Below, one piece after another: positions 2,716 to 25,426 of a stretch of 64,000 nucleotides of DNA; positions within the stretch are counted from its first letter, which is position 1, and each line of letters opens with the position of its first letter. Where the stretch lies: positions 620,001-684,000 of the forward strand of contig CDROCS010002694.1 in NCBI GenBank assembly GCA_977020255.1, in the 5' to 3' direction. This DNA is from Obrimoposthia wandeli (taxonomy: Eukaryota). Both the position numbers and the translations under genes were made by a program. The notes beneath the pieces were generated by a model. The model ran no database searches and had not been told where the DNA came from. It saw nothing but the letters and a program-made list of their open reading frames with translations.

Positions 2716-2756
2716 CTGAATACTTTGTTATTTTAATAAATTTTTGATTTTTTCGT

Positions 2757-2765
2757 TATAAACAA
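2757..2765 (+). promoter_or_regulatory. TATAAACAA motif, 36 nt before ATG 2793
   Basis: Conserved in B (20132-20140). Confidence 0.65.
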
Positions 2766-2792
2766 CGGGATTTGCTGCAAATTTAGATAATT

Positions 2793-3279: not shown

Positions 3280-3508
3280 ACAATTCTTCTAATTGGAGAA
3301 ATTCATTATTAAAATTTTACAACTAATTACAAATAAGCCTTTTGATTGGAGGAATAAAAATATTTTTTTAAACCAATAACAGATGAACAGTCCTTCTCAG
3401 TGGAGGGATAAATTCAATTTTTAATCCAATATGAAAAGAGCATGTGTGCATAAATTTTAGTATATAAGCAAACACTTTCTTCATTTAAATCCCCGACAAT
3501 TTGAAATA

Positions 3509-4230
3509 ATGACTATGGTAAGAATCTATACTTATTATTTCCTTATTAATATTTATTATTTCAGATTACTTGTATCCTGTTTCCAGCATATTGTGGTGCT
3601 TCGGCTCCGCATGGAGGAGAGACCTGCATGGAGATAATGTCCGCCTTCTATCGGACAAAGTCTCGCGGGCTTCACTTCTTCGTCTGCCCCTTCTGCAGAA
3701 CAATGGAGGAGAAGGAGTTTCGAGACTTCTTCGGTGAACATCAAGCTCATCTATCCTGTTTCACGGCCAACAACAAGAAGAGAGATATCGTGCAATTGGT
3801 GCGCGATTCGCAGGCCGCTCCAGCTCCAGCTCCAATTCCAGTTGCAGTCGATCAACCCTTTTACGGTCCTGCCATTGGTCCTTCTGTCCCGGCTCCTGAT
3901 TCTGTTGCTGCCCCATCCACTCAAATGACTAACAATGAGTGGATGAATGACATCTCCGAAGAAGATTTTGAGGAGTTGGCACCAGCAACCCAATTCTCGA
4001 ACAATGACTGGATGGAAAATATCACCCAGTCAGATTTCGAGATAGAGCAGCCTCAGTGGAGCGATAACTCCTGGTTGGAGACCATCGAGGAATCCGATTT
4101 CGTCGAGATAACGGACAACAGCTGGATGGATTCCATAAATGAAGAGGACTTCATTCCAGCTCCAGTTGGATTGCCTTCATTAGGTATTTTTTATTATTAT
4201 TTTTTAAAATTGTAATTATATATATTATTG

Positions 4231-4269
<39 letters not shown>

Positions 4270-7200
4270 TTATTCAGGAAATACCGTGATACAATCATCA
4301 TCCGCTACGACAGCTATGCCTCCCCTATTGCGAGTGCCTACATCGATGTTAGCACGCCTTAGAGGTAATAATTAAAAAAATATATATATATATTTTTTAA
4401 TATATTTATTTCAGCAGCATCAACCTCTACAACAGCCGCTTCTTCATCGGAAAGGTCAGCTTCTACCATGCCTACTCCAACTTCAAATGCAGCCTCTACA
4501 ACTGCCACTGTCTCATCATCTGCAGCAGCATCTATTACAGCAGCATCGTCTACACCAGCTGCGATTGCCTCAACATCGGCAGCATCACCAATAGCAGCAC
4601 CTTCAATCTCAGCTGCGTTTGTGTCAATTGTTAATATAAATAGTTGTCTTCCCGTTCAATTAGGGGGAGGTTTGTCAGCGACTGTAGGAAGAAAGAGGCG
4701 AGGCCAATTTCTTAATAAGGTCCCACCAAAAAAACGTAGAGAAAACGGTGCTACTGTAGAGTATCACCTAAATAATAAATATGTTATAGTTAAGGTGCCA
4801 TTAGGAAATGAAATTTTATTAAACGTAGGTGTAGATTCAAATATTGAAAATCTTTTAAAATCAGAAGTGACTAAATTAGGACAGGCTAAGGTTCAATTTT
4901 GCGCAACAGTGCAGTTTAAAAATGTCAATGAGGAAACTAAAACTTGGGTAATTTCACATAAAGCAACTGTTTTTTATGATAATTTTGTAACTGAAATTGG
5001 AAGAAACCTGGATGAAAAAATTGCTAATTATAGCGAGTTAAGTAGTGGATGGACTCTAGTTAGAATTCACGATGTTAGCTTTGTTCTAACAAAGTTCACT
5101 GACATGATATATCTTTCTGGGAGTTCATACATTCCTTCACCTAGATCTCTTCAACTTTCACGTTCTATTGTTAACGTACAAAAACAGTGATAACCTTTGC
5201 TTTCTGTATAGCGTGTTGGCCATCCTCAAAAGGGTTGTAATTACTGAACATAGAGAGCGTGTCAGTAAATATACCCTTTTTTAAATGAATTGCAGTATCA
5301 TGGAATAGATTTTCCTGTTAAATTAACTGCGATATCAAGATTTGAACATCTTAATAACTTGAGTATTAATGTATTCAAATATAATACTGATATCACAATT
5401 AATGTAACAGACGAAGAAATTTTAAAAAATCCTTTTGTAGATGTAATTTATAGGAGCAAAAAAGAGGGGACTCAGGTCAACTTAATTTTGCTCGAACAGT
5501 ATAATAAATTCTATTATGCTGCAATTCCCAGTTTAGATCGTCTTCTAAATTTAGATAATGGAGCCTTACCGGTTAGGATAAGGTGTAAGGGGTGTCATAG
5601 ATGTTTGCATGGATTCCGATCCGAGCTCTCTTACAGCAAACATCTGACATTATGTTCACTGAATCCTGATGACAATACGCTATATAGCATGCCTAAGGAT
5701 AAGGATTTAAAATGCAGGGGTTGGGCAAAATGCATACCCGTGGAATTCAGGGTGTATGCAGATTTTGAGTCAATTTAAGCATTGCACGACCAGTATGAGA
5801 GTATTCGCCTACCGTCTTCGGCAGGACTACTATTCTTAGGCCCCAATATTACACAGTATCATAAATTTTCCGGTACAAATTGTATTTAAGATTTTATGTT
5901 AAAATTAGAAGAATTAGGAACAACAATTGTCAAACCGTGGTATGATCTCAATGCCCATCAAGCAATGATCATGACAAGCATAAACTGGGTTAATTTTAAT
6001 TCTTTTATATTATGTTATTTGTGTGGAACCCAGTCTAAGTTAGTCAGAAATCACGATCATGTTACGGGGCGATACTTGGGAGCGGCGTGCAACCTCTGTA
6101 ACCTTGGCCGTCGTCTCCCTACAAAACCACGAATTCCCATCGTGTTTCATAACCTCAAAGGATATGATTTGCATCATATACTTAAATATGCGTTGGGTAC
6201 ATTAAGCTCTTGGGAAATTTCATGTATACCTCAAACGTCAGAGAAATATTTATCTTTAACTGCATATACTGAATTCTGCAGTTTAAGATTCATAGATTCT
6301 CTTCAGTTTATGAGCGGGTCTTTAAAAAATTTAACGGCATCTTTAAATGCATGGCCAATCACACAGTCAGTGTTCCCAGCTACGGTTAATGATAAGGGGA
6401 TTTTTCCGTATAAATTTGCGAAAACCTATGCAGATTTAGAAAATACTACAGAAATCCCACCCATAACTGAATTTGAAAGTGTAAGTCTTCAAGACTATAA
6501 TGAGGCCCGTACATTTTGGGCGAATAATTGTCGAAATCTTCTTGAATATATGCTTTATTATATGAAGTTAGACATTTATCTTTTAGCTGATGTTTTTGAG
6601 TCCTTTCGTGTAAAGTTTTTAGCAGAAGATGGGCTAGATCCCATGCATTTCTTTAGTTTACCTGGTCTTTCATGGGCAACAGCAATAAAAACTCTTAAAA
6701 TTAATATCGAGTTACTGCAAGATCCCGCGATGTATCAAATGTATGATTATGGTATACGCAGTGGAATGACTTTTGTCAACAAACATCATGTTGTCAAAAA
6801 TCAATCCACGGAGATTCTGTACATCGACATTAATAACAAACATTATGTTGTGCATTGGCGGCTTCTTCAATTCTACTTAAAGTTGGGAGCGAAAGTTACT
6901 CGAATTCATCGTGCTATAAGCTTCAGTCAAAACTTTGTGTTTAAAGACTTTATTGAGAAGAATTCTAGATAACGTAATTTGGCCACTAGCAAATTCGATC
7001 GGGATTTTACAAGTTAAAAAGTAATATCCTCTTTGGAAAAACTGTAGAGGACTTGCGGAAACGTATTTGTCTACGGTTTTGCAATGATGAGCGTAAACTA
7101 ATAACATATACTAGCAAGTACAACTTCAAGCGTAGTTTTACAATTGCAGATGACTTGGTAGCAGTGTTATTAGGAAAACAAAATATTTGACTCGATCGAC

Positions 7201-7787
7201 CGAGTTATATAGGTCAAACGGTTTTAGAAATTTCTAAACTCAGAATGTACGAGCTTCAATACATAGAATTGGAGAAATATCGACGAGAATTCAATTGTGA
7301 GATCAAAATCGCCACTGAGGACACTGACTCTTTCTTTTTAGAATGTAAAAATGTTAGTTTAAATAATCAATTATTACCGGCAATGTTTATGGACAACTTA
7401 TTAGATACCCATAAATATCCCGCTAACCATCATCTACACTCTATGAGTTTAAAGGATATTATCGGGAAATTTAAGGATGAAAGCGAAGGACAGGTTTCGT
7501 ATGATGATTGTATTTACCTACGCCCTAAATGCTACAGTTTACATGCATCTAATAATACATGTTCAATGAGAGCAAAGGGTGTGGAAAGAAACAATCTTAC
7601 ACATGAGGCCTAGCGGAAATTTTATGATACTGGGTGTATTGAAAGCGTTGAGCAAACTAGATTTATTTCAAGAGCCCATCAACTGTATTCCCATAAATCA
7701 ACAAAAATCGCTTTGAGTAGTAATGACGACAAGCGCTTTTGGGTAGAAAAGAACGCTAGCCTGGCTTATGGACACTTCCGAATTTAA
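3509..7787 (+). pseudogene. polB: Protein-primed family B DNA polymerase, spliced (exons 3509-3517, 3565-4183, 4278-4364, 4415-7787), multiple stops/frameshifts
   Basis: Endonuclease VII-like CYLC..HDHVTG..AACNLCN; FHNLKGYD; FIDS; KGIFPY; YMKLDIYLLADVFE; FYKLK..FGK; EDTDS; GKFKDE; RPKCY. Three frame-preserving GT-AG introns (47, 94, 50 nt). An in-frame deletion near 6838 removes the second half of motif A. Confidence 0.95.
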
Positions 7788-8013: not shown

Positions 8014-8433
8014 TCAAAATAAAACATTAAAAATATTTATTTTTATAACACACTTATAGTTTTGCAACGATAACCATAAAATACATAAATGTCCACAGTT
8101 TCTCGTCGCACGATCCTGATATTGTATCTTGTTGTAAAATACTCTTCTTCGTCCTTTTTGAATAGTCGAAAAAAGTTTGTGTGGATAATACATTGCAAGT
8201 GGATCAAATACATGTATTGTCCACTCTCTAACATAAATAGCTATCCAATGTTCTCCTGGTAAATTCGAAGTATGAGTATTGATAATGTATCTTCCAGATT
8301 GAAAAAATGGAATCATATCAATATGATAAACTCCATTGAATTTATCACCCAAGACCTTCTCTGCTGATTCTTGTACTTGTACTGAACTAAATAAAAATTA
8401 ATAAATATAAATTTTAAAAATGTCTTACTTCAT
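8014..8433 (-). CDS. Adenain-type (Ulp1-like) cysteine protease, spliced (exons 8433-8429 and 8386-8014)
   Basis: GEHW, VFDP and Q...NCGH catalytic motifs. A 42-nt GTAAG..TTAG intron restores the N-terminus MNSVQVQ. Confidence 0.9.
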
Positions 8434-8434
8434 T

Positions 8435-9664
8435 CTATAATATGACAGTTCTGTTTTTATTGATTTGTATTTCGGAATCAAACACTACGTAAATAAGCAC
8501 CGTAGTAGGATGTGTTAAAGCTGCATTGAACTTAATTTCTAGTCGTAAATTTCCATCCTTTGGTAGTTGGCATTGGTTTATATCAAAGTCTGGTGCCAAA
8601 ACAAATGTGAAGAAGGGGCAGCTGCTTTTAAACTCAGTAAAAGAAATACCATTGTTTATATTTTTATCTAGTTGGCCCAAATTCCGAAAAATAGATTGCG
8701 TATAAGCCAAAGCATAAGCGTTACCTTCGAAATCTGTTTTATATGTTTCGCGATAATCAGTATGTCTTGAAAGTGTCACTGAACCTACATTAAGATTGTC
8801 AAATTGAGTTGCATCTGTCGTATAATTTCCTAGAAACTTTGCAGTTTTTTGAAAAGAAATTAAAATGAATTTCGGTAATCTTACATCACCGAAAATTTTA
8901 ACCTTATTAAAAGCTTGTGTACCCGTACCTAAAGAGTAGGATATAAGTTTAGTTTCTCTAATAGGATAACAAGCATTGATTTTTTCCATTCCTATATTAT
9001 GTGCCATTAAAACTGATTGCTCGGTTTTAACTCTCCGAACATACAATTTTGCATCCAAAATATCAAATCTAGGTTTTAGAACGTCTGTGCTTATCAAAGA
9101 AAAATTCCATTTATAACGTTTCAAACGAAGATGTACATTAACACCGGGAATTAAATATTTCGGTTGTTCAAAGAAATTCAATCTCAAAGACCCACACATT
9201 TCGTAAGCTTTAGAACCCGCAATCCATTCTTTGCGAGTTGCGACCGTTTTATCATAACCAATGGTTGCCAAATTAGTATTTTGAGTATCAGTACTATAAT
9301 TCAAAAGACTTTCAATCAAAGCTTTATGAGCATAGGAAGAATTTCCACCTTCAATTTTGACATTATTAAGAGTAACAATGGCATCACTAAATAAAGAATT
9401 AAAGAGATAATTTACAGGTGTTACATCTGCATTTTCATCTAAATTAGTACCATCCCGATTTAATACTTTTATTTGAACATAAAGCAAAGTATCATTCAAA
9501 TCTAAATACTCGCTATTGGAACCATTAATATTAAATTCTAAATCGGTTAAAGTGGTTCCTGAAACTGAGTTAACTAGAAATATTTCTTCAAAGGAAACAT
9601 TATCTACAACTACTTGTGGAAGCGGTTTATCAAAAATACACAATTCAGTTTTGGCGCAACTCAT
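8435..9664 (-). CDS. Double jelly-roll major capsid protein (409 aa, intact ORF)
   Basis: N-terminal CAKTELCIF and C-terminal GNLRLEIKF..AL...TVLIY motifs typical of Polinton MCP; position between core gene and protease. Confidence 0.9.
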   Translation of the reverse strand: MSCAKTELCIFDKPLPQVVVDNVSFEEIFLVNSVSGTTLTDLEFNINGSNSEYLDLNDTLLYVQIKVLNRDGTNLDENADVTPVNYLFNSLFSDAIVTLNNVKIEGGNSSYAHKALIESLLNYSTDTQNTNLATIGYDKTVATRKEWIAGSKAYEMCGSLRLNFFEQPKYLIPGVNVHLRLKRYKWNFSLISTDVLKPRFDILDAKLYVRRVKTEQSVLMAHNIGMEKINACYPIRETKLISYSLGTGTQAFNKVKIFGDVRLPKFILISFQKTAKFLGNYTTDATQFDNLNVGSVTLSRHTDYRETYKTDFEGNAYALAYTQSIFRNLGQLDKNINNGISFTEFKSSCPFFTFVLAPDFDINQCQLPKDGNLRLEIKFNAALTHPTTVLIYVVFDSEIQINKNRTVIL

Positions 9665-10039
9665 TTTGCAAATATTGTTCCTTCAACTTTCTTACGTTTG
9701 TTTATATTGATTTTTTGCTTCTTTTTACTTTTAAATCCACTACCTCCTTGGTTTTTATTTGATTTACGTTTTCTAATCAAATTAGCAACTTCTGGTAAAA
9801 CATTATCAAGTTCATCAAGCGCATGCTTCTTAAAAGTTGGTATTAGTTTATTGAAAATTAGATGAAAGGTAGTCCTTTCCTAATTTTGATATAAACCGCC
9901 CGAGTCTCTTTAAAAGAGGAAAGGCAAATCTACATAATGTTCTAAGCCAGCCAGATCCATATTGTTTACCAACAAAATATGGTAATTCTCCACCTTGTTG
10001 GCTTTAACTATAAGCTTCAATTATTGCTGGATTCGCCAT
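9661..10039 (-). pseudogene. Small basic virion core-type protein (QQGGELPYFVGKQYGSGW...; basic tail); stop and frameshift
   Basis: Q-x-G-x-G motifs and K/R-rich C-terminus; its TGA overlaps the MCP ATG (ATGA). Confidence 0.7.
9698..9706 (-). promoter_or_regulatory. TATAAACAA motif, 42 nt before MCP ATG
   Basis: Lies inside upstream coding sequence. Confidence 0.6.
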
Positions 10040-11081
10040 TTTGTTTTCTTAAATGTATTGTTAAACTTGTCTTGGCCCCGTACGTGAAATCTATTAGTTG
10101 TCCGGAATCATCTCTAATATTTACTTCAATATTGTTTATAGAAAAGAGAGAAACTGGAAGATACATTGGTTGATCTATACACATACCGACAGCGTCCCCA
10201 TCTCTAGTTTCATTTTTAGATATCCATATTGTTCTCAAAAGTGGAACTCGCTGTCCTCCTACAAGAGTTGGTTCTATTAAATTAGTATAAATATATAAAT
10301 GATTAACAGCATTTAAAAGCTTTGCCTTATTTTTAGCTTTTATGGTTTTTATTGTATGGGTTTCAAAGGTATTTCTGTTTAAACCAAGGTTTTTAGCGAG
10401 TTTATCATCAAATAAAACTCGTATTATATTGCTCTTTACTGTAAACGTTATTTTACCATTTTTTAATGTTACACATTTATCGAAATATTCACTACATTCC
10501 TTCTGTATTAATTTACAGAAATTTTCTTCACTATCTAATTTATAATCTTTTGAAAACATTTTCAGTTCCACTACATACTTTGGTATCGTTTCAACTGAAA
10601 ACACTTTTGTTACTCTATCAGGAACATTTTTAAACGATTTAGATGAGGCTATATCAGATCTCTTCATACCTACTACATGTCCACTGTCAAAACCGAATTG
10701 AAGAGCTTCTCTATCAGATCCAAATATAATTTGAATAGGTTTTAAAAAATGTTTTAGTCTATTTTTAAATATGACTTTGTTTTTTTCATATATTACTTTC
10801 ACTTCTTTATCTATACAATTGTAATAGAATTTTCCTTTACTATTAAACCCAATCACAACTGCAGTTGTTTTTTCATGATCAACTTCTTTTGTAAACGAAA
10901 TATGTGAGTTTTTTCTGATAGTAATTGGAGAATAATAAAAGGAAAATTCTGTTAAAGCCGCTTCCCATTCTCCTTGGAGATTTATAGGATTTTCCCAATC
11001 GATAATAAAGCTACTAGCGTTATTATCTGGTTGAGTCTTCGGACATCCGTTACTAGGTAAAACCATATACATAGACTTCAT
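10017..11081 (-). CDS. Minor capsid protein / penton (354 aa, intact ORF)
   Basis: MVLPSN..PDN.ASSF..INLQGEWEAALTE and LYIYTNLIEP.LVG..RVPLLR..YLPV..IEVNIRDDSG motifs. Confidence 0.88.
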   Translation of the reverse strand: MKSMYMVLPSNGCPKTQPDNNASSFIIDWENPINLQGEWEAALTEFSFYYSPITIRKNSHISFTKEVDHEKTTAVVIGFNSKGKFYYNCIDKEVKVIYEKNKVIFKNRLKHFLKPIQIIFGSDREALQFGFDSGHVVGMKRSDIASSKSFKNVPDRVTKVFSVETIPKYVVELKMFSKDYKLDSEENFCKLIQKECSEYFDKCVTLKNGKITFTVKSNIIRVLFDDKLAKNLGLNRNTFETHTIKTIKAKNKAKLLNAVNHLYIYTNLIEPTLVGGQRVPLLRTIWISKNETRDGDAVGMCIDQPMYLPVSLFSINNIEVNIRDDSGQLIDFTYGAKTSLTIHLRKQNGESSNN

Positions 11082-12091
11082 ATTATATTAGATGCTGATA
11101 TTCAAGTTGGATCTGAATAACCATGCCATTTAACATAGTATTGTTTATGTTTACCGGCACCCTTAGATTTTAATATTTTTTGAATCCGGTAAACGCTAGG
11201 TTTATTTGATATTACTTGTAGTTCTTGCTCGTAAAATTTACCGTGAGCGATATTATTGTCAGCATCTTTAATAGTATACATTATTGGATTACTCTTTTGA
11301 TCAATTTTTCTTATACAAAATATTTCATCGCTCCAATTCTGATCAAAGTTATTAATAAATGGAGTAGAGCTAATTTTCGAAATTCGGACATATTCGTTTT
11401 TCTTATATTTAGCTTTTTTAATATTTTCTTTTTATTCCTGTTCAACCAGATATCTATAGAATTTTTTCAACAGGTCTCATTCCCTTGAGACTTCTATGTT
11501 CCGAGTGATTATAGGCATGTATTATTTTAGGTAAAACTTGGATCCATTTATTATTTCCTTCTTTTGTGAAATACTTTTTTATTTGATCTCTTAAAGTACG
11601 ATTAAATCTTTCTACTACAGCTGCTTTATACTGTGAAAACACAGAGTAGTGATTTATATTATTTTGTTTAAATAAAGATTGAACTTGCTTATTATAAAAT
11701 TCTTTTCCTAAATCAGTTTGCACATTTTGTGGAATGTCCTCTTTTAATATTTCTTTAATGGCTTCAAGCATAGCTATTGAAGACTTTGCTTTAACTGGAA
11801 TTGCACGAGCAATTTTTGCTAAATACATCAATACATGTTAAAATATATCGATATCCCTTATTAATGGAAGAATATGGGATCATCTCCATCAAATCCATTT
11901 GCCATAAATTATTAGGACCGCTGGTTTTGTAAGCTCTAGTTGGAAGCTCTCATCGGCTTGTTCAGACTGTAGGCTAACTGGTTGCTCAGCCATTTCTGCG
12001 TTTTCTTGTATTTTTGTTTTGTTCTTTTTGCTAATTTTGAAACTCCGGTGTAGCCAAGTGGATCTTTTGGGTTGAACCATATCTTCTCCAT
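11078..12091 (-). pseudogene. Retroviral-type (rve) integrase with C-terminal chromodomain, frameshifted
   Basis: DDE triad QMDL / QTDLGKEF / VVERFNRTL; C-terminal YRIQKILK..KQYYVKWHGY chromodomain; stop overlaps penton ATG (ATGA). Confidence 0.92.
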
Positions 12092-12173: not shown

Positions 12174-12182
12174 TTGTTTATG
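12174..12182 (-). promoter_or_regulatory. CATAAACAA motif, 33 nt before ATG 12149
   Basis: One-mismatch copy at the typical spacing. Confidence 0.55.
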
Positions 12183-12202: not shown

Positions 12203-12508
12203 CTACTGATAATTGAAGCAACAAACTGGAATAACAGCCCCTATGAAACCACCATTCTGTTTAAGAATAATATTTCGTTTCCTTTTTTTACTTTTTACAT
12301 TAGCAATATCTAGAAGAGTTTTTCTATATTTCTTTAATATATTTTTCCGATTTCCAACTTTTACTCGACCCAAAACTATATTATACAAAACTTCCAATAA
12401 ATCATCTACAACAAAAGATGGAAATGCTTTAAGAATAATCATTCTCTTATGAGAAGAGGCTTTGACTAAAGCTTTAAAATAGGGTATGCTTCTTTGTATT
12501 TTCTTCAT
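12203..12508 (-). CDS. Conserved small basic Polinton virion protein with QNGGF motif (101 aa)
   Basis: Basic helical protein ending ILKQNGGFIGAVIP, typical of Polinton genes between ATPase and integrase. Confidence 0.75.
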   Translation of the reverse strand: MKKIQRSIPYFKALVKASSHKRMIILKAFPSFVVDDLLEVLYNIVLGRVKVGNRKNILKKYRKTLLDIANVKSKKRKRNIILKQNGGFIGAVIPVCCFNYQ

Positions 12509-12535: not shown

Positions 12536-12544
12536 TTGTTTATA
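12536..12544 (-). promoter_or_regulatory. TATAAACAA motif, 36 nt before ATG 12508
   Basis: Contains the stop codon of the upstream 46-aa ORF. Confidence 0.65.
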
Positions 12545-12687: not shown

Positions 12688-13334
12688 TTAACTTTTAGGA
12701 TTGTTCTCTATTTGTTTATAAACAGTTACTTCCTTATAATTAAATATGTCGGTTAAAACACGTAAATCATCTGGGCAAGCTTGTGTAAAGTCAATAAATA
12801 TATACCCATGTGCTTGTTTAGCAGCATCGTGGAATGAATCAACTAGAAAGGACTTATTTTGAGGAAATGCCTGTCTGGCCACGAAATCAACAACTGTTTG
12901 ATCTCTAGGATTTTTAAATAAAACTAAGTAATGCACATTAAGATTTCTAGTTCTATGGTGACCTCCTTGGTGAAAAAGATTTTGAGTGATAAATATAACT
13001 GTTACTTCACGATTTCTTGCAATCTTCGTAAATAATTATTAAAGTCTGATTCCTTGTTAGCTTCCTGATACAAATCATCAATTATTATTACATCTTCTTT
13101 TTACAATCTTTCACACCAATTTGCATCAAATCCTTCAATAAATTGTATTCCCTTCAACTTGCAAACTTCTGTTTTGGTTAATCCGCTTTCCCCTCCTCCA
13201 CCATGATGCCAATAAATATTTTTGAAACTAGATTTGAAAAGAGATTCATTTTGCAACAATTTACATACGAAATGTGTCTTTCCACTTCCACTGGGACCAA
13301 CTATTTGAAATACAGCATTATTATTTAGCTCCAT
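12688..13334 (-). pseudogene. A32/FtsK-like genome packaging ATPase; one stop (13101-13103) and one frameshift (~13035)
   Basis: Walker A GPSGSGKT, Walker B IIIDD, ITQNLF, LFKNPRD. Confidence 0.93.
12712..12720 (-). promoter_or_regulatory. TATAAACAA motif, 40 nt before ATG 12680
   Basis: Inside ATPase coding sequence. Confidence 0.6.
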
Positions 13335-13361: not shown

Positions 13362-13370
13362 TTGTTTATA
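13362..13370 (-). promoter_or_regulatory. TATAAACAA motif, 36 nt before ATPase ATG
   Basis: Recurrent motif. Confidence 0.65.
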
Positions 13371-13373: not shown

Positions 13374-13646
13374 TCATAGAAGTTTCCTTATTGAAATGTA
13401 CAATGTTAGAGCTATTGTAGATGAAATACAAAAATTAATTAATGAATATTTGGTTATAATTTTATTTATTTGTGTACGATTTCTAAATTCTCGAATAACG
13501 TGTGATCTAACCAATATTTCAATGTTATCTCTTGTTATATCATTATTTTTTAATTCTGATAAAATTTCTTTACCCCTAATTTTTCCAGAAAATATTTCGT
13601 CGGCAAGACGATCCACTTCATTGTCTCTATTTATAGTATTATTCAT
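13374..13646 (-). CDS. Hypothetical 90-aa protein with hydrophobic C-terminus (possible TM helix)
   Basis: Open ORF with TATAAACAA 33 nt upstream; diverged homologous DNA near 59064-59190. Confidence 0.65.
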   Translation of the reverse strand: MNNTINRDNEVDRLADEIFSGKIRGKEILSELKNNDITRDNIEILVRSHVIREFRNRTQINKIITKYSLINFCISSTIALTLYISIRKLL

Positions 13647-13670: not shown

Positions 13671-13679
13671 TTGTTTATA
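13671..13679 (-). promoter_or_regulatory. TATAAACAA motif, 33 nt before ATG 13646
   Basis: Contains the TAA stop of the TBP-like gene. Confidence 0.65.
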
Positions 13680-14171
13680 GAAAAAATAACAATATGTAAT
13701 AAGATATATTTTCTAAAATCAAATCAACAATGTCTGAATAATCAAAATTTTTCAATTCCAATATCATAACTTTACCACTGGAAAATATATTTACACATAG
13801 CGGTTTAAACTTCAAATAACTGAGAACAGGAAAAATTTCTGGTTCAAACATGCATTCTTCTTTCATTTTCTCTGCAGTTTTAAAAAGATTTATCTGTTTC
13901 CCAAGATTAGCCGAAATCGTGATTGATTGTATTGCAGTGATTCGAATTCCAAATGATAAATTGAACCCAAGTATTGGTATTTTGCATCCCATAACACGAC
14001 AATTTCCTAAAAGAATTAAATATGAAAATAAAAAAACTAACCTGTAGGAAAAATAACAACTGTAAAATTGTCAAACTTTTCCACATATTGTCTCGGCTTC
14101 CTTTCATTGAATGGTAAGTACGAAACATCATCTTCTGTTCTACCTTTATAATTTATATTTACGAGTTTCAT
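13675..14171 (-). CDS. TATA-binding-protein-like factor (153 aa), spliced (exons 14171-14042 and 14006-13675)
   Basis: Repeat 1: MKLVNINYKG...VVIFPTGNCRVMGCK. Repeat 2: IQSITISANL...FEPEIFPVL...VNIFSSGKVMI. A 35-nt GT-AG phase-1 intron joins them in frame. Confidence 0.88.
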
Positions 14172-14198: not shown

Positions 14199-14209
14199 TT
14201 CTTTATATA
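14199..14209 (-). promoter_or_regulatory. Canonical TATA box (TATATAAAG) ~36 nt before the TBP-like ATG
   Basis: Reverse strand reads ACATATATAAAGAAG. Confidence 0.55.
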
Positions 14210-14362
14210 TGTCTGAACCTGCTTTTTTATTGCACGTTTCTTGTAATTATCTTGCAAACCTATTATTATTGGATGATATATTTCTTCCAATCAAATTTGA
14301 TTTTTAATATGGATTTAGTCCAATCAAATTCAATGCTTTAGTTATATTAACCAATGAGATTC

Positions 14363-15101
14363 ATGTCTTTGTTAGAAATTAGTATAAAAGAATTCGTCAT
14401 TAGAGGGCAAATCATAGTAAATGCATTCATATCAAAGACAATTATCAACGATGGATGATAGCAAACGGGTATTAAGCGATGAGGAAGATATAGAAATGTT
14501 TGAAGAATCGGATAAGGATATGTATGAAAAAGTGAAACAATATTTCAAATACAAAGTCAGATGTCTTTGTTAGAAATTAGTATAAAAGAATTCGTCATTA
14601 GAGGGCAAATCATAGTAAATGCATTCATATCAAAGACAATTATCAACGATGGATGATAGCCAACGGGTATTAAGCGACGAGGAAGATATATAAATGTTTG
14701 AAGAATCGGATAAGGATATGTATGAAGAAGTGAAACAATATTTCAAATACAAAGTCAGATTCTTGAAGAAGGCTCAACTGATTGCTTTAGTAAATCCTGT
14801 GACAATTGAAAGAAGAAAGTTCAGCTACTATCTATTAAATATTCAAAAACCAAATTTTCTATATCTTAAACAGAAAGTTGAAAAGGCAGTTCCGAATTTT
14901 ACTTTCAATAAGAACGAATTTTATATCCGAGGACCCGATGAAGCATTTCTAGATGACTATGGAAGATATGTTGATATTGATGCATTTCCGAAAAAGAAGC
15001 AATGGACTGTAACAATTCGACTTTATGGTTACAAGAAAGATGAAATGGGAACAAAGTTGCCTATGTGGAAAATTGAACGTGCTCATATTTCTATGTTTTA
15101 A
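14363..15101 (+). pseudogene. Right copy of the ~177-aa hypothetical gene, with a ~198-bp tandem duplication of its 5' part
   Basis: ATGTCTTTGTTAGAAATTAG occurs at 14363 and 14561; 14694-15101 is open. Confidence 0.75.
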
Positions 15102-15235
15102 CTTTTGTGTGTAATAAATTGTAATCGGTTTTACTATGTTTCTTTCATTTAATAATCAGTTTTATTTGTATTTTATTTGTATCTTATATGTATTTTTTTA
15201 TAAACATTGTTTTTAATCAGTTTCCTTATTTTAGA

Positions 15236-15640
15236 ATGGATAAGAGATGTGTAGCAAATTTTTATTATCCAGAAAGAATTTCAAAAGGAAAACTATGTAA
15301 TATATTAAAGAGGCATCAAATTATACGAGTTATGAATCCTGTGAAAATATCAGAAGTGGAGAATAAATATCTCATCGAAATTTTAACAACATCTGATATT
15401 GATCAATTGAAAAATATTTTGGGATTTTACATTCCTGATTATGTATATGAAGAAAATTGTTTCCAGCTTGAAACTGATCCCAGTCTTGATTTTAAAGATG
15501 ATCTAGGATATTTGATTGCTCCAATTCTAGATGAAGAACTATGGAATATCTCAATACGTCTCAATGGATATTTTGCTGATGACGGGGAAATGCAGCCTCT
15601 TTGGACTTTGAGTGAAGCCAATATGTTGTTTTATGTTTAA
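15236..15640 (+). CDS. Right copy of the 134-aa hypothetical protein
   Basis: Near-identical to 199-603(-); TATAAACAT at 15199. Confidence 0.75.
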   Translation: MDKRCVANFYYPERISKGKLCNILKRHQIIRVMNPVKISEVENKYLIEILTTSDIDQLKNILGFYIPDYVYEENCFQLETDPSLDFKDDLGYLIAPILDEELWNISIRLNGYFADDGEMQPLWTLSEANMLFYV

Positions 15641-15920
15641 TAAATATTTAGAAAAATAATTTTGTCTCGTATTTTGTTTTTTCTCCTTTAAATTATATAG
15701 ATCTGACAGATTTTTTATCCTATAAATAGATATTTAACATGTAGTAATCTAAAATCTTTCTTAAAAATAGTAGTAATATATTATTTAAAATCTCGTCTGC
15801 GATAAGCCGCCGAGACCAATATGGATTCCCGTGGTCTTCTCTAACCACTTTTGAGATTCGCAGTAAAATTTTTAAAAATTGTGGTGGGGGGTACCCTTTG
15901 GGTGGAATGGAGACATACAT

Positions 15921-16006
15921 GAAATTTCACTCCACACACATGCACAGTTTTAAAAGACAGAGGAGGGGGGGAGGGGTGTGGATTAGACCGGACACATCCA
16001 CCAACT
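15921..16006 (+). repeat. Right terminal inverted repeat of element A
   Basis: GAAATTTCACTCCACACACATGCAC...GTGGATTAGACCGGACACATCCACCAACT, matching 24018-24098. Confidence 0.85.
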
Positions 16007-19000
16007 TACGTTTTCTAGAATTCTTCTCAATATAGTCTTTAAACACTAAGTTTTGACTAAAGCTTATAGCACGATGAATTCGAGTAACTTTCGCTCCCAA
16101 CTTTAAGTAGAATTGAAGAAGCCGCCAATACACAACATAATTCAACTTGTCTTCATGTGTTAACAATAATTTCTTAACCTTTGAATTAGGTGGGCATTGA
16201 TGAACATGTGCTACTGGGAGATTATCTAATTTATCATGCACATTGGAAGGGATTGTTAAGTCAACCTCAACCAAATAGCCGATGTCTGATGAAACTGTAT
16301 CAACAGTAGCCAAATCTGTCATCAACTTATTCAACTCTTCCTCATCATAAACCCACTTAAAATTGGCATGAGGAAGAGGTTGAGTAAGCGCCCACCCATA
16401 CAAATTATTAATATCAATGTACAGAATCTCCGTGGATTGAATTTTGACAACATGATGTTTGTTGACAAAAGTCATTCCACCGCGTATACCATAATCATAC
16501 ATTTGATACATCGCGGGATCTTGCAGTAACTCGATATTAATTTTAAGTGTTTTTATTGCTGTTGCCAATGAAAGACCAGGTAAACTAAAGAAAAGCATGG
16601 GATCTAGCCCATCTTCTGCTAACGATTTTACACGAAAGGACTCAAAAACATAAACTAAAAGATAAATGTCTAACTTCATATAATAAAGCATATATTCAAA
16701 TAGATTTCGACAATTATTCGCTCAAAATGTACGGGCCTCATTATAGTCTTGAAGACTTAAACCCTCAAATTCAGTTATGTGTGGGATTTCTGTAGTATTT
16801 TCTAAATCTGCAAAGGTTTTCGCAAATTTATACGGAAAAATCCCCTTATCATTAACCGTAGCTGGGAACACTGACTGTGGGATTGGCCATGCATTTAAAG
16901 ATGCCGTTAAATTTTTTAAAGACCCGCTCAAAAACTGCAGAGAATCTATGAATCTTAAACTGCAGAATTCAGTATATGCAGTTAAAGATAAATATTTCTC
17001 TGACGTTAGAGGTATACATGTACCCAACGCGTATTTAAGTATATGATGCAAATCATATCCTTTGAGGTTATGAAGAACGATGGGAATGCGTGATTTTTTA
17101 GGGAGACGACGGCCAAGGTTACAGAGGTTGCACGCCGCTCCCAAGTATCGCCTCGTAACATGATCATGATCTCTGACTAACTTAGACTGGGTTCCACACA
17201 AATAACATAATCTACAAGAATTAAAATTAACCCAGTCTATGCCTCTCATGGTCATTGCTTGATGAGCATTAAGATCATACCACGGTTTGACAATTGTTGT
17301 TCCTAATTCCTCTAATTTTAACATAAAATCTAAAATACAATTTGGACCGGAAAATTTATGATACTGTGTAATATTGGGGCCTAAGAATAGGTGGTGAGCC
17401 GGTAGGTGAATACTCTCATACTCTCATGCTATATAGCGTATTGTCATCAGGATTCAGTGAAAATAATGTCAGATGTTTGCTGTCAGATGTTAGCTTGGAT
17501 CGGAATGACACCACTTACACCTTATCCTAACCGGTAAGGCTCCATTATCTAAATTTAGAAGACGATCTAAACTGGGAATTGCAGCATAATAATAAAAATT
17601 ATTATGTTCGAGCAAAATTAAGTTGACCTGAGTCCCCTCATTTTTGCTCCTATAAATTACATCTACAAAAGGATTTTTAAATATTTCTTCATCTGTTACA
17701 TTAACTGGGATATCAGTATTATATTTGAATACATTATTACTCAAGTTATTAAGATGTTCAAATCTTGATATCGCAGTTAATTTAACAGGAAAATATATTC
17801 CATGATACTGCAATTCATTTAAAAAAGGTGTATATTTACTGACACGCTCTCTATGACACCCCTTTTGAGGATGGCCAACACGCTATACAGAAAGCAAAGG
17901 TTATCAAAGGTTATATGTTTTGTATGTTAACAATGGAACGTGAAAGTTGAAGAGATCTAGGTGAAGGAATGTATGAACTCCCAGAAAGATATATCATGTC
18001 AGTGAACTTTGTTAGAACAAAGCTAACATCGTGAATTCTAACTAGAGTCCATCCACTACTTAACTCGCTATAATTAGCAATTTTTTCATCTAAGTTTCTT
18101 CCAATTTCAGTTACAAAATTATCATAGAAAACAATTGCTTTATTTGAAATTACCCAAGTTTTAGTCTCCTCATTGACATTTTTAAACTGCACTGTTGCAC
18201 AAAATTGAACCTTAGCCTGTCCTAATTTAGTCACTTCTGATTTTAAAAGATTTTCAATATTTGAATCTACATCTACGTTTAATAAAATTTCATTTCCTAA
18301 TGGCACCTTAACTATAACATATTTATTATTTAGATGATACTCTATAGTAGCACTGTTTTCTCTACGTTTTTTTGGTGGGACCTTATTAAGAAATTGGCCT
18401 CGCCTTTTTCTTCCTACAATCGCTGACAAACCTCCCCTAATTGAACGGGAAGACAACTATTTATATTAAAAGTTGAGGTGGAAGGAGCTGCTATTGGACA
18501 TGCTGCCGATGTTGAGGCAATCGCAGCTGATGTAGACGATGCTGCTGTAGTAGATGCTACCGCAGATGATGAGACAGTAGATGCAGCATTTGGAGTAGTA
18601 GCCGACATTGCCGACAAAGAAGCGGCTGTTGTAGAGGATGATGCTGCTGAAATAAATATATTAAAAAATAAATATATTTTTAAAAATTATTACCTCTAAG
18701 ACGTGCTAACATCGATGTAGGCACTCGTGATGGGGGAGGAATAGCTATCGTAGCGGATGACGGCTGTATCACGGTATTTCCTGAATAAAAATAATAATAA
18801 AATATATATAATTACAATTTAAAAAAAATAATCTGAAAAATAATTTTAAAAAATTCTAATGAATGCAATCCAACTGGAGCTGGAATGAAGTTCTCTTCAT
18901 TGACGGAATCCATCCAGCTGTCGTCTGTTATCTCGACGAAATCGGATTCCTCGATGGTCTCCAACCATGAGTTATCACTCCATTGCTCCATCTCGAAATC

Positions 19001-19437
19001 TGACTGGGATATGTCGTTCATCCACTCATTGTTAGTCATTTGAGTGGATGGGGCAGAATCATGAGACGGGAGACAAATCGCAAGACTGTAAACGGGTTGA
19101 ATCACTGCAACTTGAATTGGAGCAGGTGCAGCCTGTGAATCGCGCACCACTTGCACGATATCCCTCTTCTTGTTGTTGGCCGTGAAACAGGATAGATGAG
19201 CTCGATGTTCACCGAAGAAGTCTCGAAACTCCTTCTCCTCCATTGTTCTGCAGAAGGGGCAGACGAAGAAGTGAAGCCCGCGAGACTTTGTCCGATAGTA
19301 GGCGGACATTATCTCCATGCAGGTCTCTCCTCCATGCGGAGCCGAAGCATCACAATATGCTGGAAACAGGATACAAGTAATCTGAAATAATAAATATTAA
19401 TAAAGAAATAATAAGTATAGATTCTTACCATAGTCAT
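16007..19437 (-). pseudogene. polB: pPolB copy B, spliced, disrupted, truncated just before motif B
   Basis: Retains the full motif A (YIDINNLYGWAL). Intron 1 (19428-19382, 47 nt) and intron 3 are conserved; the intron 2 donor is lost. Confidence 0.93.
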
Positions 19438-19645
19438 TATTTCAAATAGTCGGGGATTTTAATGAAGAAAGTGTTTGCTTATATACTAAAATTTATGCAC
19501 ACATGCTCTTTTCCTATTGGATTGAAAAATTGAATTTTATTGAGAAGGATTGTTTATCTGTTAAATGGTCGAAAAAAAAAATTTTATTCTTCCAATCAAA
19601 AGAATTATTTGTAATTGAATGAAAATTATGAATTAGAAGAATTGT

Positions 19646-20104
19646 TTATCTACATGTCAAGTATTAATAAGATAGACTTAAACATTTTTTAATGGTCACC
19701 ATGACTACGATATGGACAGAAAATATTTAACGTGAAATATTTAAAGTATTCAACCTCAATTTGGGAAAACATTTTTTTAAAGTCTTATACTTTTTGCGAT
19801 CCATTTCATCTAAAACATAAAAAATTCCATTTTCAATATCAAAATTAGATTTTATTGTTTCGAAAATACATATTTCACAAAAAGCCTTATGTCCTTATTT
19901 CTATTTTAATAAATGAAAATAATTAGTTAGATATAAATTAGTAAATTTTTTCTTATAATCTAAACTTTTAAATAGGATATCTATTTGAAATATGAAATGC
20001 AATGGATGAAAAACGTCGCATACATCCATAATACATAATTCTTTTATAATATAATCACCATTTTTGTTAATGAAAGCCTCAAAATCTATGATATATTCCT
20101 GCAT
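19646..20104 (-). pseudogene. DEDD-like gene, copy B
   Basis: MQEYIIDFEAF...; premature stop after HLLK. Confidence 0.55.
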
Positions 20105-20185
20105 AATTACCCAAATTTGTAGCAAATCCCATTGTTTATAACGAAAATAACCATTAATCAAAAATTTATTAAAATAACAAAGTAC

Positions 20186-20408
20186 TCAGTCTTTCATGTT
20201 AATATTGGTATATATTGTCAATTCTCCTATGAATATTAAAAGAAATTATATTAAATGTAAACATACCTAAATATTTCGAAATTAAATTACATATTTTATC
20301 TCCAACAATTTCCGGAGTATCATTTTCTGAAAAGTAATTTTTTTTATAATCTTCCATTAAATCTGGAGATAATTTAATGTATAATTTATTCCAAATTTTA
20401 TTTTCCAT
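20186..20408 (-). CDS. Small spliced hypothetical protein (60 aa; 40-nt intron 20266-20227)
   Basis: GTATGT..CATAG phase-1 intron gives MENKIWNKL...KYLGELTIYTNINMKD*. Confidence 0.55.
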
Positions 20409-20479
20409 CTTACAAAAAACATTATATATAAATTTGTTTATATTTAGACAATTATGTAACATAATCAATAAAGACAAAA

Positions 20480-20809
20480 TAATAATCAAAAATTTATTTT
20501 TTTGTAGAAGGACCCTCTTCCAGTTTAATCTGGAGGATTTTCTTTCTTGCTGCTCGACGATTATCCTCCATCTCTTCTTTTTACATCCACCTTCTTCTTT
20601 TCCATTTCGATCTTCTTATTCCACTCCACGACCCTACGTCGTTCTGCTAGTCTCCTATCTTGTATCTCCACCCGACGATTCCACTCGGTCGCGACAGCAG
20701 TATACAGATTCTGATTAAAGACCCTCTTTCTTAAGTCTCCTTTCTTCTCGTTTCTCCGAATGTTTTCTTCAATCTTCGTTACCAGACTCTTCATTTTAAT
20801 GAATTCCAA
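20480..20809 (-). pseudogene. Charged coiled-coil gene, copy B, frameshifted
   Basis: Homologous to 2064-2396. Confidence 0.65.
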
Positions 20810-21027
20810 TTTTTAATTATGAAGAGGTTAATAAATTTGAAAATATATATATAAATTTAAGATTTTTTTTAATCCAATTAAATGATATATTTTTATTTAT
20901 CAAATGAGAGTTTAATAAATCTATAACTTATCATTGCATTTAAACCTAATAAACTTAAAAATAGTATTTTAATATTTCTAAATTTAAATTTAAAATAAAA
21001 AAAATATTAAGAAGAAAACACATGAAA

Positions 21028-22816
21028 TTAATTTTTATAAATTATATTCTTAAAAATCTTTACAAAGTCATCATTGGGATCATCCGTATCGAAATCCTTC
21101 CGACTAAGTATTATTGGAGAAAGCGGTACTGGCTCCTTCTTCTTTGGCCTGCCCGGTTTCTTTTTCGGCTTCACTGGTTGTTGTACAGCAACTGTCCTTC
21201 TCTCAGGTTTTGGCAATAGTTGCCGCAACATTTTGGGAGGATGTGCAGCTGATGTTGAGGGCCCCGACATAGAAGTCATCTTCCTCTTCCGTGGGGCTTT
21301 CTTCTGTTTCTCCTCCTTCTCACGCTGAAGCTGGCGTGAGACGGAATCCTGTGGCCCTCGCGAATCTGGAAGCATTGCCGGTGTATCCAGTTCCGCCAGG
21401 AATTCATCCAATCCAGCTTCATCCCAGGCCATCTTCAAGTTCTGGCTGGTTGTTGGAGATGTAGTCTCCCAAGCCCTGGCCAAATTTGATGTCTCCTGTA
21501 GGCGTCGTTGACTCGGTGGCGGACTAATCTCTATTGGTGAGACTGGGATCCTCTCGTATAGAATTGGCCCGTCGTCCACTGGAGATGGGAGAATCTCCTG
21601 CCGTCCAATCACCGCCTCAGAATAATGGCGAATTGAGGTGCTACATTTTCTTGAGCGCCTCGTCTTCTTCACCTCTGCTCGCTTCGCCCGTTTCTTGGGA
21701 AAATGAGTAATTTCTCCCCAAGTCTCCTCAAATATCTGGACGGGTTCCTACAAAATATTAATAATAATTTACCTCTATGATGGGCAGGTTAGCCTGTTTC
21801 ACCAACTTGGCCTTCTTCTGATGGACCGTGTGGGTTTTTACCCGATGACGTTGCGGTTTCTTAACCGCCGCTCGCTTCCTATCCACCGGTTGAATAGGCG
21901 TCGCCTCTTCGAGAATGTTCTCCATCTATGTGAATTATTAAATTTAATATCTAAATAATTTACCTTAAAATTATCTGGAGACGCTAGGTATCGGAGCTGA
22001 CTCCTTGGCAGCTCCTGGCTCCATTGACTCGCCAAGTACTGCGGTTCAATCAGCCTCTCCATCGTGGTCACTGACGGTGCCAAATCCAATTGAAGTTTCT
22101 GAAAATGAAATTAAAAAACATTTAAAATAAATGTTGTCTAACCTCATTCGTTGCTTTTATTCTCCTAACAGGAGATTTCGGCCTTTTGAATGGTTTAGGC
22201 GTTGTATTTTCCGCTATCGGAGTTGGAGTAGCAGAGGGAGTGGGACCATCCCAATCGTCGGTGAACAGGTGCCACTCGTCCTCGTCCAATTCTACCACCA
22301 TCGAATCGTTGGCTCCTGGGGGTCCGATACTTGGCTGTATCCATTCATCTATGAATGGAGTCCAGTCCTCCTCACCATCCGATGGTACGTCATCGGTGAA
22401 CAGATCCTCGTCTGAGTCTGGTGCGAGAACTTTCTCCGGCTGAGACAGCGGGATCAATTTCCATGGCCATGTTCTCCTTGCTGCTACTGCCGAAGTTGCT
22501 GGACGAGAGGCCTCTGGGTTCTGACGGGGAGTACAGTCTTCCCAATTCTCAATGGAATCCTGACTTGTCAGGTCAATATATTGGGATTTCTGTACCCCAC
22601 CTCTCACGTCCATTGGTTCTTCTATTGGAGTTGCGCTGGTCAATGGGGCTTTTTCTTCCAACAGGTCCGCTCTTGCTGCTGCTTCTCGTTCGCTCACCAC
22701 CGATGAGTCTTGACTAAGTAAGTCAATGGTGGTGTTCGCTGCTGTACTGGAGAGAGATCCCCATACAGTTGAACCTCTGTCTCTTCGTCTAGGTCAACGT
22801 TGTTGTAGAATGGCAT
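21028..22816 (-). CDS. Terminal four-exon gene for a ~560-aa acidic/Pro-rich disordered protein with C-terminal AT-hook-like motif
   Basis: Exons 22816-22143, 22098-21964, 21925-21773 and 21747-21028 are joined by phase-0 GT-AG introns of 44, 38 and 25 nt. One frame break near 22750. Confidence 0.75.
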
Positions 22817-24098: not shown

Positions 24099-25426
24099 GA
24101 TTACCATTGTATTGACTTCTTATCTCCGGACCCCGCTGCATATAGTGGAGCTGCAATATTTTCATAATCTTTAATAAATCGTCGATAATAGTTTGCCAAT
24201 CCTAAAAAGGATTTTAGTTTTCCGCTACAATCTGGTTTTTTAACATTTATAATTTCGTTGACATTCGACTGATTTGTATGTATTCCGCTTTCTGTTATTG
24301 TATGACCTAGGAATTTTAACTGTTTCTAGCCAATGTAGCATTTATATGGGTTTATTTTGAGGCCTTTTTTTTTTGAATACCTCTCTTAATAATTTATAAT
24401 GTTCTTCTTGGTTGTTACTATAAAGAATGATATCATGTATATATACAATTGTTCCTTTGAACAACAAACCATCCTATATTTTATGCATCAAACTCTGAAA
24501 TGTTGCCTGTGCTGTAACCAACCCAAATGGCATGCGATTGAAACAAAATTGTCCTAATTTTGTACTGAAAGCGATTTTTGTCTGAGACTCTTTCTCTAGA
24601 TCTACCTGATAATAAGCTTGTCCAATATCTAATGTCGTCAATATTTTAGCATCACCTAGACAATCGAACAAGAGTTGTGCATCCGGTATGGGGAATGTAC
24701 ACTTCTTGGTTACAGCATTCAATTGTCTGTAGTCAACATACATTCAAATTGTATTGTCTGGCTTCTTCACAATGACCAATGGCGAGTTCCAAGGACTTTC
24801 ACAACGCCTAATTACATTTACATAAAGTAAATTTTCAATCATTTCATCAACTTGGTTTTATAAATGCATCGGTTGTCGTATAGGATTTTGGCAAATAGGA
24901 TCGGCAATAGTCTCAATCTTATAAGAGACAATTATGGTATATCCAAGATCAAATTTAGAACACATAAATATTTTCCCAAATTCCTCAATATAATGTCCTA
25001 GAATTGAGTCTCTATCACATTTTAAAGAATTACATATTTATCTGTTCTTTCTTTTGAGGAAATCTTTTTCATCATGCAAGACAAGACCAAACTACATACT
25101 TCCTGCAGCTTTATCCCAAATGTTTTAATTGTATCGATTCCACCGATAAATACTGGTTTAATTTCTTCTACAACTATTATTTCCAAAACATTCTCCTTTC
25201 CATTCCATAACACTTTAGTATTAAACCTACCTAAAGGCTGTTGATGATTATTCGAAAAAACTCCACTCAGATATAAATTACGCTGTCTCATTTTGTGACA
25301 TCCTACTTTCTTCCAACAATCCTTACTCATTACAGTAACTGATGCTCCGAAGTCCCACAGCATTTCCACATCTACATCATTAATCTTCATTATACTCCAT
25401 TCACGACCATCATTCTTCATATACAT
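24099..25426 (-). pseudogene. pol: Gypsy protease-reverse transcriptase, disrupted
   Basis: LWDFGASVTVM (degenerate D[ST]G); RT ORF 24474-24743. Confidence 0.88.

Follow-up and report, generated by a model that had tools for sequence, protein, structure and literature searches.

A split TBP gene in a broken Polinton

The window, i.e. the whole stretch of 64,000 nucleotides from Obrimoposthia wandeli that was analysed, contains on its minus strand a gene for a small TATA-binding protein (mini-TBP) that extends from an ATG at 14171 to a TAA stop codon at 13677-13675. Exon 1 (14042..14171; 130 nt, corresponding to 43 codons plus 1 nt) encodes strands S1-S4 of the N-lobe, and exon 2 (13675..14006; 332 nt) the last part of this lobe together with the complete C-lobe and its E-x-E stirrup. 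Between them lies a putative phase 1 intron of 35 nt (14007..14041, GT...AG), located within the Gly codon following the repeat-1 Phe, whose removal would give an ORF of 154 codons including the stop codon, i.e. a protein of 153 aa. Exon 2 alone matched the Pfam TBP profile PF00352 with an E-value of 6.4e-11 and 42.4 bits (cut-off 22.9) as well as 35 distinct TBP sequences of the PDB (best E 8.6e-11). Exon 1 had no match in Pfam; its alignment with the first 43 columns of the intronless family resulted in an hhalign probability of 98.5 (E 1.7e-15). The initial annotation, which had proposed a 153-aa TBP gene in two exons, is thus confirmed, as all four motifs it had quoted are present and exon 2 carries the PF00352 match. 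The window copy differs from its family at one near-invariant position and sits in a broken element, the ATPase, integrase and polymerase genes being in pieces.

Upstream of the mini-TBP gene a canonical TATA box, TATATAAAG (14201..14209, minus strand), is located 38 nt before the start codon and is probably an early promoter read by host TBP. Downstream follows a block of genes on the same strand that is accompanied by copies of a seven-base box, YATAAAC. The first box (13673..13679), which overlaps the mini-TBP stop codon, lies 33 nt before a 90-aa ORF (13374..13646) that gave no Pfam match and separates TBP from the packaging ATPase (12691..13334), identifiable by its Walker A motif. The following boxes lie 36 nt before the ATPase start (13364..13370), 40 nt before a basic ORF of 46 aa (12714..12720) and 36 nt before the gene of a small basic protein that we take to be of the PW type (box at 12538..12544, gene at 12203..12508). 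A CATAAAC box (12176..12182) is found 33 nt upstream of a small ORF that lies ahead of the retroviral-type integrase (11105..12091), for which rve scored E 7.7e-4, below cut-off, on a fragment, and another one (11143..11149) 68 nt before the putative minor capsid gene (10017..11081), which has no Pfam match and was assigned from its position and its homologs in metagenome loci. A YATAAAC box (10134..10140) within the last part of the minor capsid gene precedes a small PZ-type gene by ~100 nt, and the box at 9700..9706 lies 42 nt before the gene of the major capsid protein, a double jelly roll (8435..9664). The latter and the adenain-type protease (8014..8397, minus strand) were identified by synteny and homology, their Pfam scores being below cut-off (PF21738, E 0.0015, and PF00770, E 0.025, respectively). 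Two further boxes, at 8660 and 8582, cannot be clearly assigned to a gene. The mini-TBP gene had been described as being directly at the head of an ATPase-to-capsid block, which holds here with the restrictions that the 90-aa ORF intervenes and that the position varies among elements: besides its place before the ATPase, TBP is also found behind the protease or in divergent orientation to the ATPase.

Divergent from TBP, two paralogous genes of 135-150 aa (14694..15640, plus strand) encode candidate ssDNA-binding (SSB-like) proteins, and the second one has an in-frame ATG 37 nt downstream of a box at 15199. A 198-nt tandem duplication (98%; 14363-14758) separates TBP from the first SSB-like gene. 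The clusters nearest to these genes in the Atlas consist of unnamed NCLDV proteins, one of them carrying Pox_I3 in 12%, and SSB-like genes stand beside TBP in 17/85 loci. In four loci (L049, L055, L059 and L062) an AT-rich stretch after a GT ends in AG directly before the SSB-like ATG, which suggests a second intron upstream of this gene. Farther upstream lie a broken and truncated remnant of a protein-primed PolB with an EndoVII-like insert (15930..18456, minus strand; PF03175, E 3e-12) and a broken gene (19733..20140, minus strand) whose ATG is preceded at 36 nt by a YATAAAC box. This gene has no Pfam match; on account of a motif it is presumably a nuclease and is called exonuclease-like here. 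Long open homologs of PolB and integrase are found in L049, L053 and L088. A second exonuclease-like copy is present in the window at 2793-3276, and both Polinton groups have kept the gene, in many cases immediately ahead of TBP; as a guess, it may be the gene labeled 'MAEL' in Fig. S2 of PMC8502044. PolB, integrase, ATPase, protease and capsids are all found in the window, and in the accessible part of PMC8502044 PolB, rve integrase, ATPase, protease, and major and minor capsid form the gene set shared by Polintons, Mavericks and adintoviruses.

Other features of the window lie outside this block. Positions 123-7632 and 14316-21367 correspond to each other as a partial inverted second Polinton copy with arms of up to 1019 nt that are 87-98% complementary; the blocks of the copy at 123-7632 are out of order, and the region is made up of nested, rearranged remnants. 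An LTR retrotransposon has left traces (Gag, aspartyl protease, reverse-transcriptase-like) at 24100-26420, and an ORF with a U1 zinc finger (U1-C type) at 51889-52248 has a 300-nt duplicate, 95% identical, at 45782-46081. Among TBP elements elsewhere, an E2 ubiquitin-conjugating enzyme, RING fingers and KilA-N occur within or flanking the element (L053:225-719, L075:1710-2168, L088:13315-13893, L099:7052-7909).

The 35-nt intron was assessed by comparison with other members of the family. P0001, the closest homolog outside the genome, is a continuous protein of 157 aa through the junction motif and 50% identical to exon 2, and two intronless families of the own genome (L130 type, 144 aa, and L243) are ~50% identical. 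An intron at the same codon and in the same phase, unrelated in sequence, is present in two other divergent families of the own genome (L141, 39 nt; L143, 38 nt, and L146, 36 nt, the last with the donor GA) and in one metagenome locus (L075, 40 nt). We surveyed 50 window-family copies of 58 examined, the others not spanning the gene or being duplicates; among the 49 mappable sites of each kind the donor is GT in 47 and the acceptor AG in 48, and the intron length is 34-40 nt. Per copy, 1.9 indels per 100 nt were counted in the intron versus 0.05 and 0.08 in the exons, a contrast that is inflated because the copies were chosen by exon similarity and T runs abound in the intron. Alternatively, the 35 nt might be a frameshifting insertion, the gene of the window family being dead and the protein being made only by the intronless families. 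The genomic copies do decay roughly neutrally, and 35 nt is shorter than all three host introns read for comparison (43, 47 and 48 nt). However, the recurrence of the codon and phase in three other divergent families, the preserved splice sites, the indel contrast and the conservation of both exons against other families make this explanation extremely unlikely. The recurrence at the same codon in divergent families also upholds the intron claimed by the initial annotation, and we strongly infer that it is spliced out of the mini-TBP transcript. For four runs of a single sample, whose kind is not on record, none of the 15 joints listed falls on the 35-nt intron; with 213 more joints outside it, this list is uninformative on splicing. 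The intronless L130 family has AG-GT, a typical intron insertion site, at the codon where the other families carry the intron.

Distribution, phylogeny and fold of the Polinton TBPs

Counting a 22-nt word from exon 2 across the 1.35 Gb of the genome gave 5,465 occurrences, against 0 for the control. Searching 1.84 billion representatives with P0001 gave 665 clusters at E 0.001 and 98 at 1e-10, with ordinary TBPs among the lower-ranked matches. An alignment of 46 of these clusters led to 98 metagenome loci, all retrieved via the TBP gene, of which 80 were kept. Core Polinton genes are present in 42 of these, 23 have only exonuclease-like or SSB-like genes and 15 have none, so that another Polinton gene stands beside TBP in 65/80; 14 of the 15 loci lacking one are shorter than 2.1 kb. 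For the 32 loci of at least 3 kb the respective numbers are 26, 5 and 1, i.e. 31/32 have a Polinton context. TBP is therefore present in many related Polintons, which contradicts an isolated capture. Searches of IMG/VR yielded a single, spurious match in a picorna-like RNA virus with P0001, five large-virus TBPs and no family member with the TBP alignment, and no relatives with the ATPase and capsid alignments; a phage collection returned no match.

In the main TBP tree, calculated from 43 of 99 rows, all 19 sampled family proteins fall on a single branch (100/100), whose stem measures 1.5 changes per site and which is separate from the three host TBPs and seven other eukaryotic TBPs. A larger quick tree of the 99 rows agrees, with 67/67 family proteins grouping together (SH-aLRT 96). 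Long-branch pull is possible in the TBP tree. A clade of the window protein and the three host TBPs was rejected with p-AU 1.2e-6, a value that is inflated as the host genes themselves are not one clade. The nearest rows outside the family are unlabelled, virus-like TBPs on long branches. Grouping with host TBP would have spoken for a capture, and a recent one from this host is ruled out by the separate clade in the tree. Because the proteins form one clade, have Polinton neighbours in 31 of the 32 longer loci and are encoded by more than 5,400 genomic copies, the sequences indicate that the mini-TBP gene is not a recent host capture. Comparison of window exon 2 with nine other families gave dN values of 0.35-0.49 at dS values from 1.49 to saturation; the ratios of closer pairs among the other families reach up to 0.43, and that of one near-identical pair is 1.0. 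The host genome itself contains at least four TBP-family genes (L117-L126; G000 C238, C968, C60, C1092), two of them conventional and arranged head to head on C238 and the others divergent, including an intronless one in two copies.

The fold was assessed with a model of the homolog P0001 rather than of the window's own protein. The model, based on the 46-sequence alignment, has a pLDDT of 96 and superimposes on residues 66-240 of yeast TBP with a Z-score of 13.3 and an rmsd of 2.6 over 150 residues; Foldseek agrees. In a fold search 38 TBP entries scored at least 10.9 and the next fold 7.1, in line with the TBP of two pseudo-repeats proposed initially. Among viral proteins the best fold matches are NCLDV TBPs (E 1.9e-8), and herpesvirus entries are weak fold matches. 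The N-lobe of the model has all strands, an H1 of only four residues, and a linker replacing H2. A long form of the protein (160-170 aa), which by its sequence appears to keep the N-lobe helices, is found in nine loci (L086, L088, L091, L095, L098, L099, L101, L105 and L106) and, wherever the context is visible, belongs to PLA2-bearing elements. The short forms nest inside the long forms, which suggests stepwise shrinking.

We mapped 39 short and 28 long forms on conserved eukaryotic TBP by sequence alignment, using yeast TBP residue numbers, which gave one consistent offset. Phe116, Phe190 and Phe207 are conserved in 67/67 proteins, Asn69 in ~90%, and Pro191 is kept. The Phe99 column is gapped in 67/67, and Asn159 is replaced by Ser or Thr. 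The residue count given at the outset (three of four Phe kept, the Phe99 equivalent missing, the repeat-2 Asn changed to Ser) holds. Further substitutions affect Val71 (Asn in 87% of the short and 61% of the long forms), Val122 (Arg, 100% and 96%), Thr124 (Met, 100% and 96%), Val161 (Thr) and Leu205 (Asn, 100%). Positions 194, 203 and 205 are unlike cellular TBP in most short forms; mutation of these positions changes the specificity of yeast TBP (PMC1636458, accessible part).

The equivalents of Glu186 and Glu188, the TFIIB-contacting residues of cellular TBP, are kept in 97-100%, and H2 positions 134-139 are gapped in 82-95% of the short forms. As far as the accessible part of PMC7221094 goes, the two C-lobe glutamates are assigned to TFIIB binding and the basic cluster of N-lobe H2 to TFIIA, TAF1, Mot1 and Brf1. 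The helix carrying this cluster is absent in the model and alignment of the short form; in the long form it is present and not basic. Of the marks of a canonical TBP, the family lacks the set of four intercalating Phe, the pair of central Asn (69 and 159), the H2 basic cluster and the grouping with host orthologs, and it has the two TFIIB-binding C-lobe glutamates. The TFIIB profile PF00382 matched 12 times genome-wide, in exon-sized frames, versus more than 5,400 TBP copies, and Pfam scans of TBP neighbours revealed no TFIIB, although a very divergent one could escape; because of the mere 12 matches in the genome we regard the elements as being without a recognisable TFIIB. Residue mapping over the 67 family proteins thus upholds the suggested change of the DNA-binding face and indicates that this face is re-tooled, that the helix for host regulators is lost, and that the TFIIB glutamates are kept.

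The YATAAAC box and its readers

We counted the box in non-redundant 80-nt regions upstream of the ATG in TBP-bearing elements. YATAAAC precedes 22/24 ATPase, 21/23 PW, 11/12 major capsid, 7/8 PLA2, 4/5 protease, 9/12 exonuclease-like and 8/15 minor capsid genes, and it is also found before genes that are not obviously late (integrase 7/18, SSB-like 4/14, polymerase 2/10). For PZ genes the count is 1/9 within 80 nt and 9/9 within 120 nt. Shuffled controls gave under 1 per gene class, and the reverse strand of the upstream regions contained no box. An unbiased count returned ATAAAC as top six-letter word, present in 78 of 97 regions with 8.4 expected. Position 1 is C in 24% of the sites, and position 7 is a fixed C. 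For successive genes of the window block the distances of 33, 36, 40, 36, 33, 68, ~100 and 42 nt amount to 33-42 nt before the start codon in most cases.

The TBP genes themselves have a different upstream region: YATAAAC was found before 1/58, and a canonical TATA before 33/58 versus 11.6 in shuffled regions (maximum 20), the other 25/58 having no canonical TATA within 80 nt. The words TCAT(A/T)A and TCACTT, which presumably are initiator-like, are enriched just before the ATG of TBP genes (58 loci).

The box is directional, as ten TBP-bearing blocks (67 kb) contain 101 sense and 5 antisense copies. As control we used a second Polinton lineage of the same genome, picked by Pfam capsid family, in which no TBP-like frame was found, the only matches in 200 kb being nested TBP-bearing elements. 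Six copies of this lineage (50.5 kb) have 3 and 11 boxes on the two strands, and YATAAAC occurs in 0/80 upstream regions, a count from a single lineage with redundant copies. The lineage (L205-L244) encodes a PLA2-integrase fusion, an A32-type ATPase, a PF21738 capsid and an adenovirus pX-like protein. A distant capsid query on the own genome gave matches of unassigned family at 30-33% identity.

Two trivial sources of the box were rejected. A poly(A) signal does not account for it, as C or T precedes in 95%, the spacing fits the downstream ATG, and the box is also present before ATPase genes divergent from TBP (e.g. L092). Codon constraint is ruled out as well: Ile-Asn is coded ATA-AAC in 16/29 cases near ORF ends versus 12/95 elsewhere, and boxes within coding DNA thus appear to be kept at the DNA level. 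As the spacing is TATA-like and most genes have no other enriched TATA, the box is probably the core promoter itself.

The main rival to a dedicated reader is that host TBP itself reads YATAAAC as a deliberately weak TATA box, e.g. only post-replication, with mini-TBP acting as a decoy for TFIIB or host promoters. Cellular TBP can use TATAAAC, since TATAAACG retained 27% activity in Arabidopsis, i.e. with plant TBP (PMC10005294, accessible part), and one PDB entry (1qn3) is a complex of wild-type TBP with a C(-25) TATA variant. The two TFIIB glutamates, which are kept, would be required by a decoy as well, and one of the four DNA-wedging Phe is lost. However, the DNA face is replaced rather than decayed (Arg122 96-100%, Met124 96-100%, Asn205 100%), the C at position 1 in 24% of the sites and the fixed C at position 7 are both poor for host TBP as far as the accessible parts of PMC10005294 and PMC1636458 go, and the TBP-less lineage of the same host is without the box. 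We therefore consider host TBP unlikely to be the reader. For a direct comparison of mini-TBP and host TBP, TATAAACA, CATAAACA and TATAAAAG would be suitable oligo sequences.

The sign of the effect is a separate matter, as co-occurrence and strand bias are compatible with either sign. Bound to the box, mini-TBP might repress virion genes while the element is integrated or be architectural in replication or packaging, and the loss of the H2 surface could block TFIIA and co-activators too. The TATA-like spacing, the general lack of another enriched TATA, by which the box is probably a core promoter, and the conserved TFIIB contacts argue against such roles, which are quite improbable.

A proposed late transcription factor and its relation to known systems

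The gene, its fold (on the homolog), its clade, the box and the distribution of the box are computational observations: mini-TBP is a real, widespread and conserved Polinton gene with a matching promoter signature. Our preferred reading, to which we assign a probability of roughly 0.6, is that mini-TBP is a Polinton-specific late transcription factor that uses host TFIIB and Pol II. The initial annotation had already suggested a late-gene factor, and this is supported because the box lies before virion genes, not before TBP and not in the TBP-less lineage; the link between mini-TBP and YATAAAC is a correlation, with a single TBP-less control lineage of 80 redundant regions.

In a first step host TBP and Pol II would transcribe the mini-TBP gene from its ordinary TATA box, and the host spliceosome would remove the intron. 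In a second step mini-TBP would bind YATAAAC[A/G] before virion and packaging genes, as suggested by co-occurrence and residue changes. In TBP-DNA complexes it is the N-lobe that lies on the downstream half of the box, where the largest protein changes would meet the fixed C, so that the N-lobe, with no Phe99 and with Arg 122, Asn 71 and Met 124, may read C at position 7, Arg 122 being the likely reader. In a third step the intact stirrup of the C-lobe would recruit host TFIIB and Pol II, turning on the virion genes, and loss of N-lobe H2 would remove the docking site of Mot1/BTAF1, TAF1, TFIIA and Brf1, freeing mini-TBP from eviction and inhibition.

Virophages share late promoters with their giant-virus hosts, and mini-TBP might likewise bind the box on behalf of the RNA polymerase or TFIIB of a helper large DNA virus. 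The nearest non-family rows of the tree are virus-like and unlabelled, the viral fold matches are NCLDV TBPs, and the neighbouring SSB-like genes resemble NCLDV proteins. On the other hand, the spliceosomal intron of four or more families implies that mini-TBP is transcribed by Pol II in the nucleus, its acidic TFIIB signature is near-invariant versus ~40% in large-virus TBPs (PMC7221094, accessible part), and the number of more than 5,400 copies suggests that the elements spread independently of a rare helper. A helper virus is thus highly improbable, and both this explanation and repression are less likely than reading of a weak TATA box by host TBP.

If mini-TBP is the late factor, elements usually treated as transposons would have a regulated virion-producing phase, which bears on the question of how Polintons express their capsid genes and whether a true virus phase exists. 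A dedicated factor and a seven-base promoter make this question testable, and early and late genes could be called from sequence. We consider the odds slightly better than even that a large Polinton group has a two-stage transcription programme with the smallest known stand-alone TBP, in which an orthogonal mini-TBP/YATAAAC pair works on host TFIIB and Pol II, has shed the surface for host regulators and is independent of the herpesvirus late system. For TBP itself the family would be a natural experiment, a core of ~145 residues without helix H2 and with a predicted change of specificity.

The statement that no description of TBP as a Polinton gene was known needs a qualification, as the accessible part of PMC8502044 (Starrett 2021) has TBP as a label in the legend of Fig. 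5, on an adintovirus-like map in the section on non-animal datasets. It stands insofar as TBP appears in the accessible text only as this label, with no family, function or promoter described, and no TBP was found in the searchable part of the supplement. We found no TBP or TATA term in PMC10748475 and 10.64898/2026.06.19.733378, no TATA or 'transcription' term in PMC8097293, and no Polinton term in the searchable files of four supplements of PMC7221094. No paper on a Polinton TBP family or the YATAAAC box was found in a search whose coverage excludes most subscription journals and Repbase.

With cellular TBP, TRF and archaeal TBP (PF00352) the Polinton TBPs share the two-lobed saddle fold, Phe116/190/207, Asn69, Pro191 and the TFIIB glutamates. 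They differ from the cellular core in being ~25 residues shorter, with H1 shortened and H2 turned into a linker, in the loss of Phe99 and the exchanges at positions 159, 71, 122, 124 and 205 (Ser/Thr, Asn, Arg, Met and Asn, respectively), and in forming a separate clade on a long stem. The TBPs of Nucleocytoviricota are also virus-encoded and do not conserve the N-lobe basic cluster; these viruses, however, have their own TFIIB and polymerase, and the first TFIIB glutamate is conserved in ~40% of their TBPs as opposed to 97-100% in Polintons (PMC7221094, accessible part).

By analogy, the system that mini-TBP most likely works like is that of herpesvirus ORF24. Like Polintons, beta- and gamma-herpesviruses are nuclear DNA viruses without an RNA polymerase of their own and have a variant TATA before virion genes. 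KSHV ORF24, as described in the accessible part of PMC12529657, is a TBP-fold protein that acts at variant TATTWAA late promoters and has a polar DNA face, similar to the Polinton pair. According to the same part, ORF24 is large and multidomain, binds Pol II directly and needs five partners, and it keeps all four Phe and is without the TFIIB glutamates; the Polinton TBP is the opposite, with the glutamates kept. It is a bare stand-alone domain of 145-170 aa and not a member of the ORF24/BcRF1/UL87 family. Pfam scans of its neighbours, which include several small ORFs without a match, revealed none of the vTA partners (ORF18, 30, 31, 34, 66). If our reading is true, Polintons would represent, independently of herpesviruses, a second instance in which a nuclear DNA virus relies on a TBP mimic for its late genes; their design would be the opposite of the herpesvirus one, as the TFIIB contact is kept and no large complex is needed.
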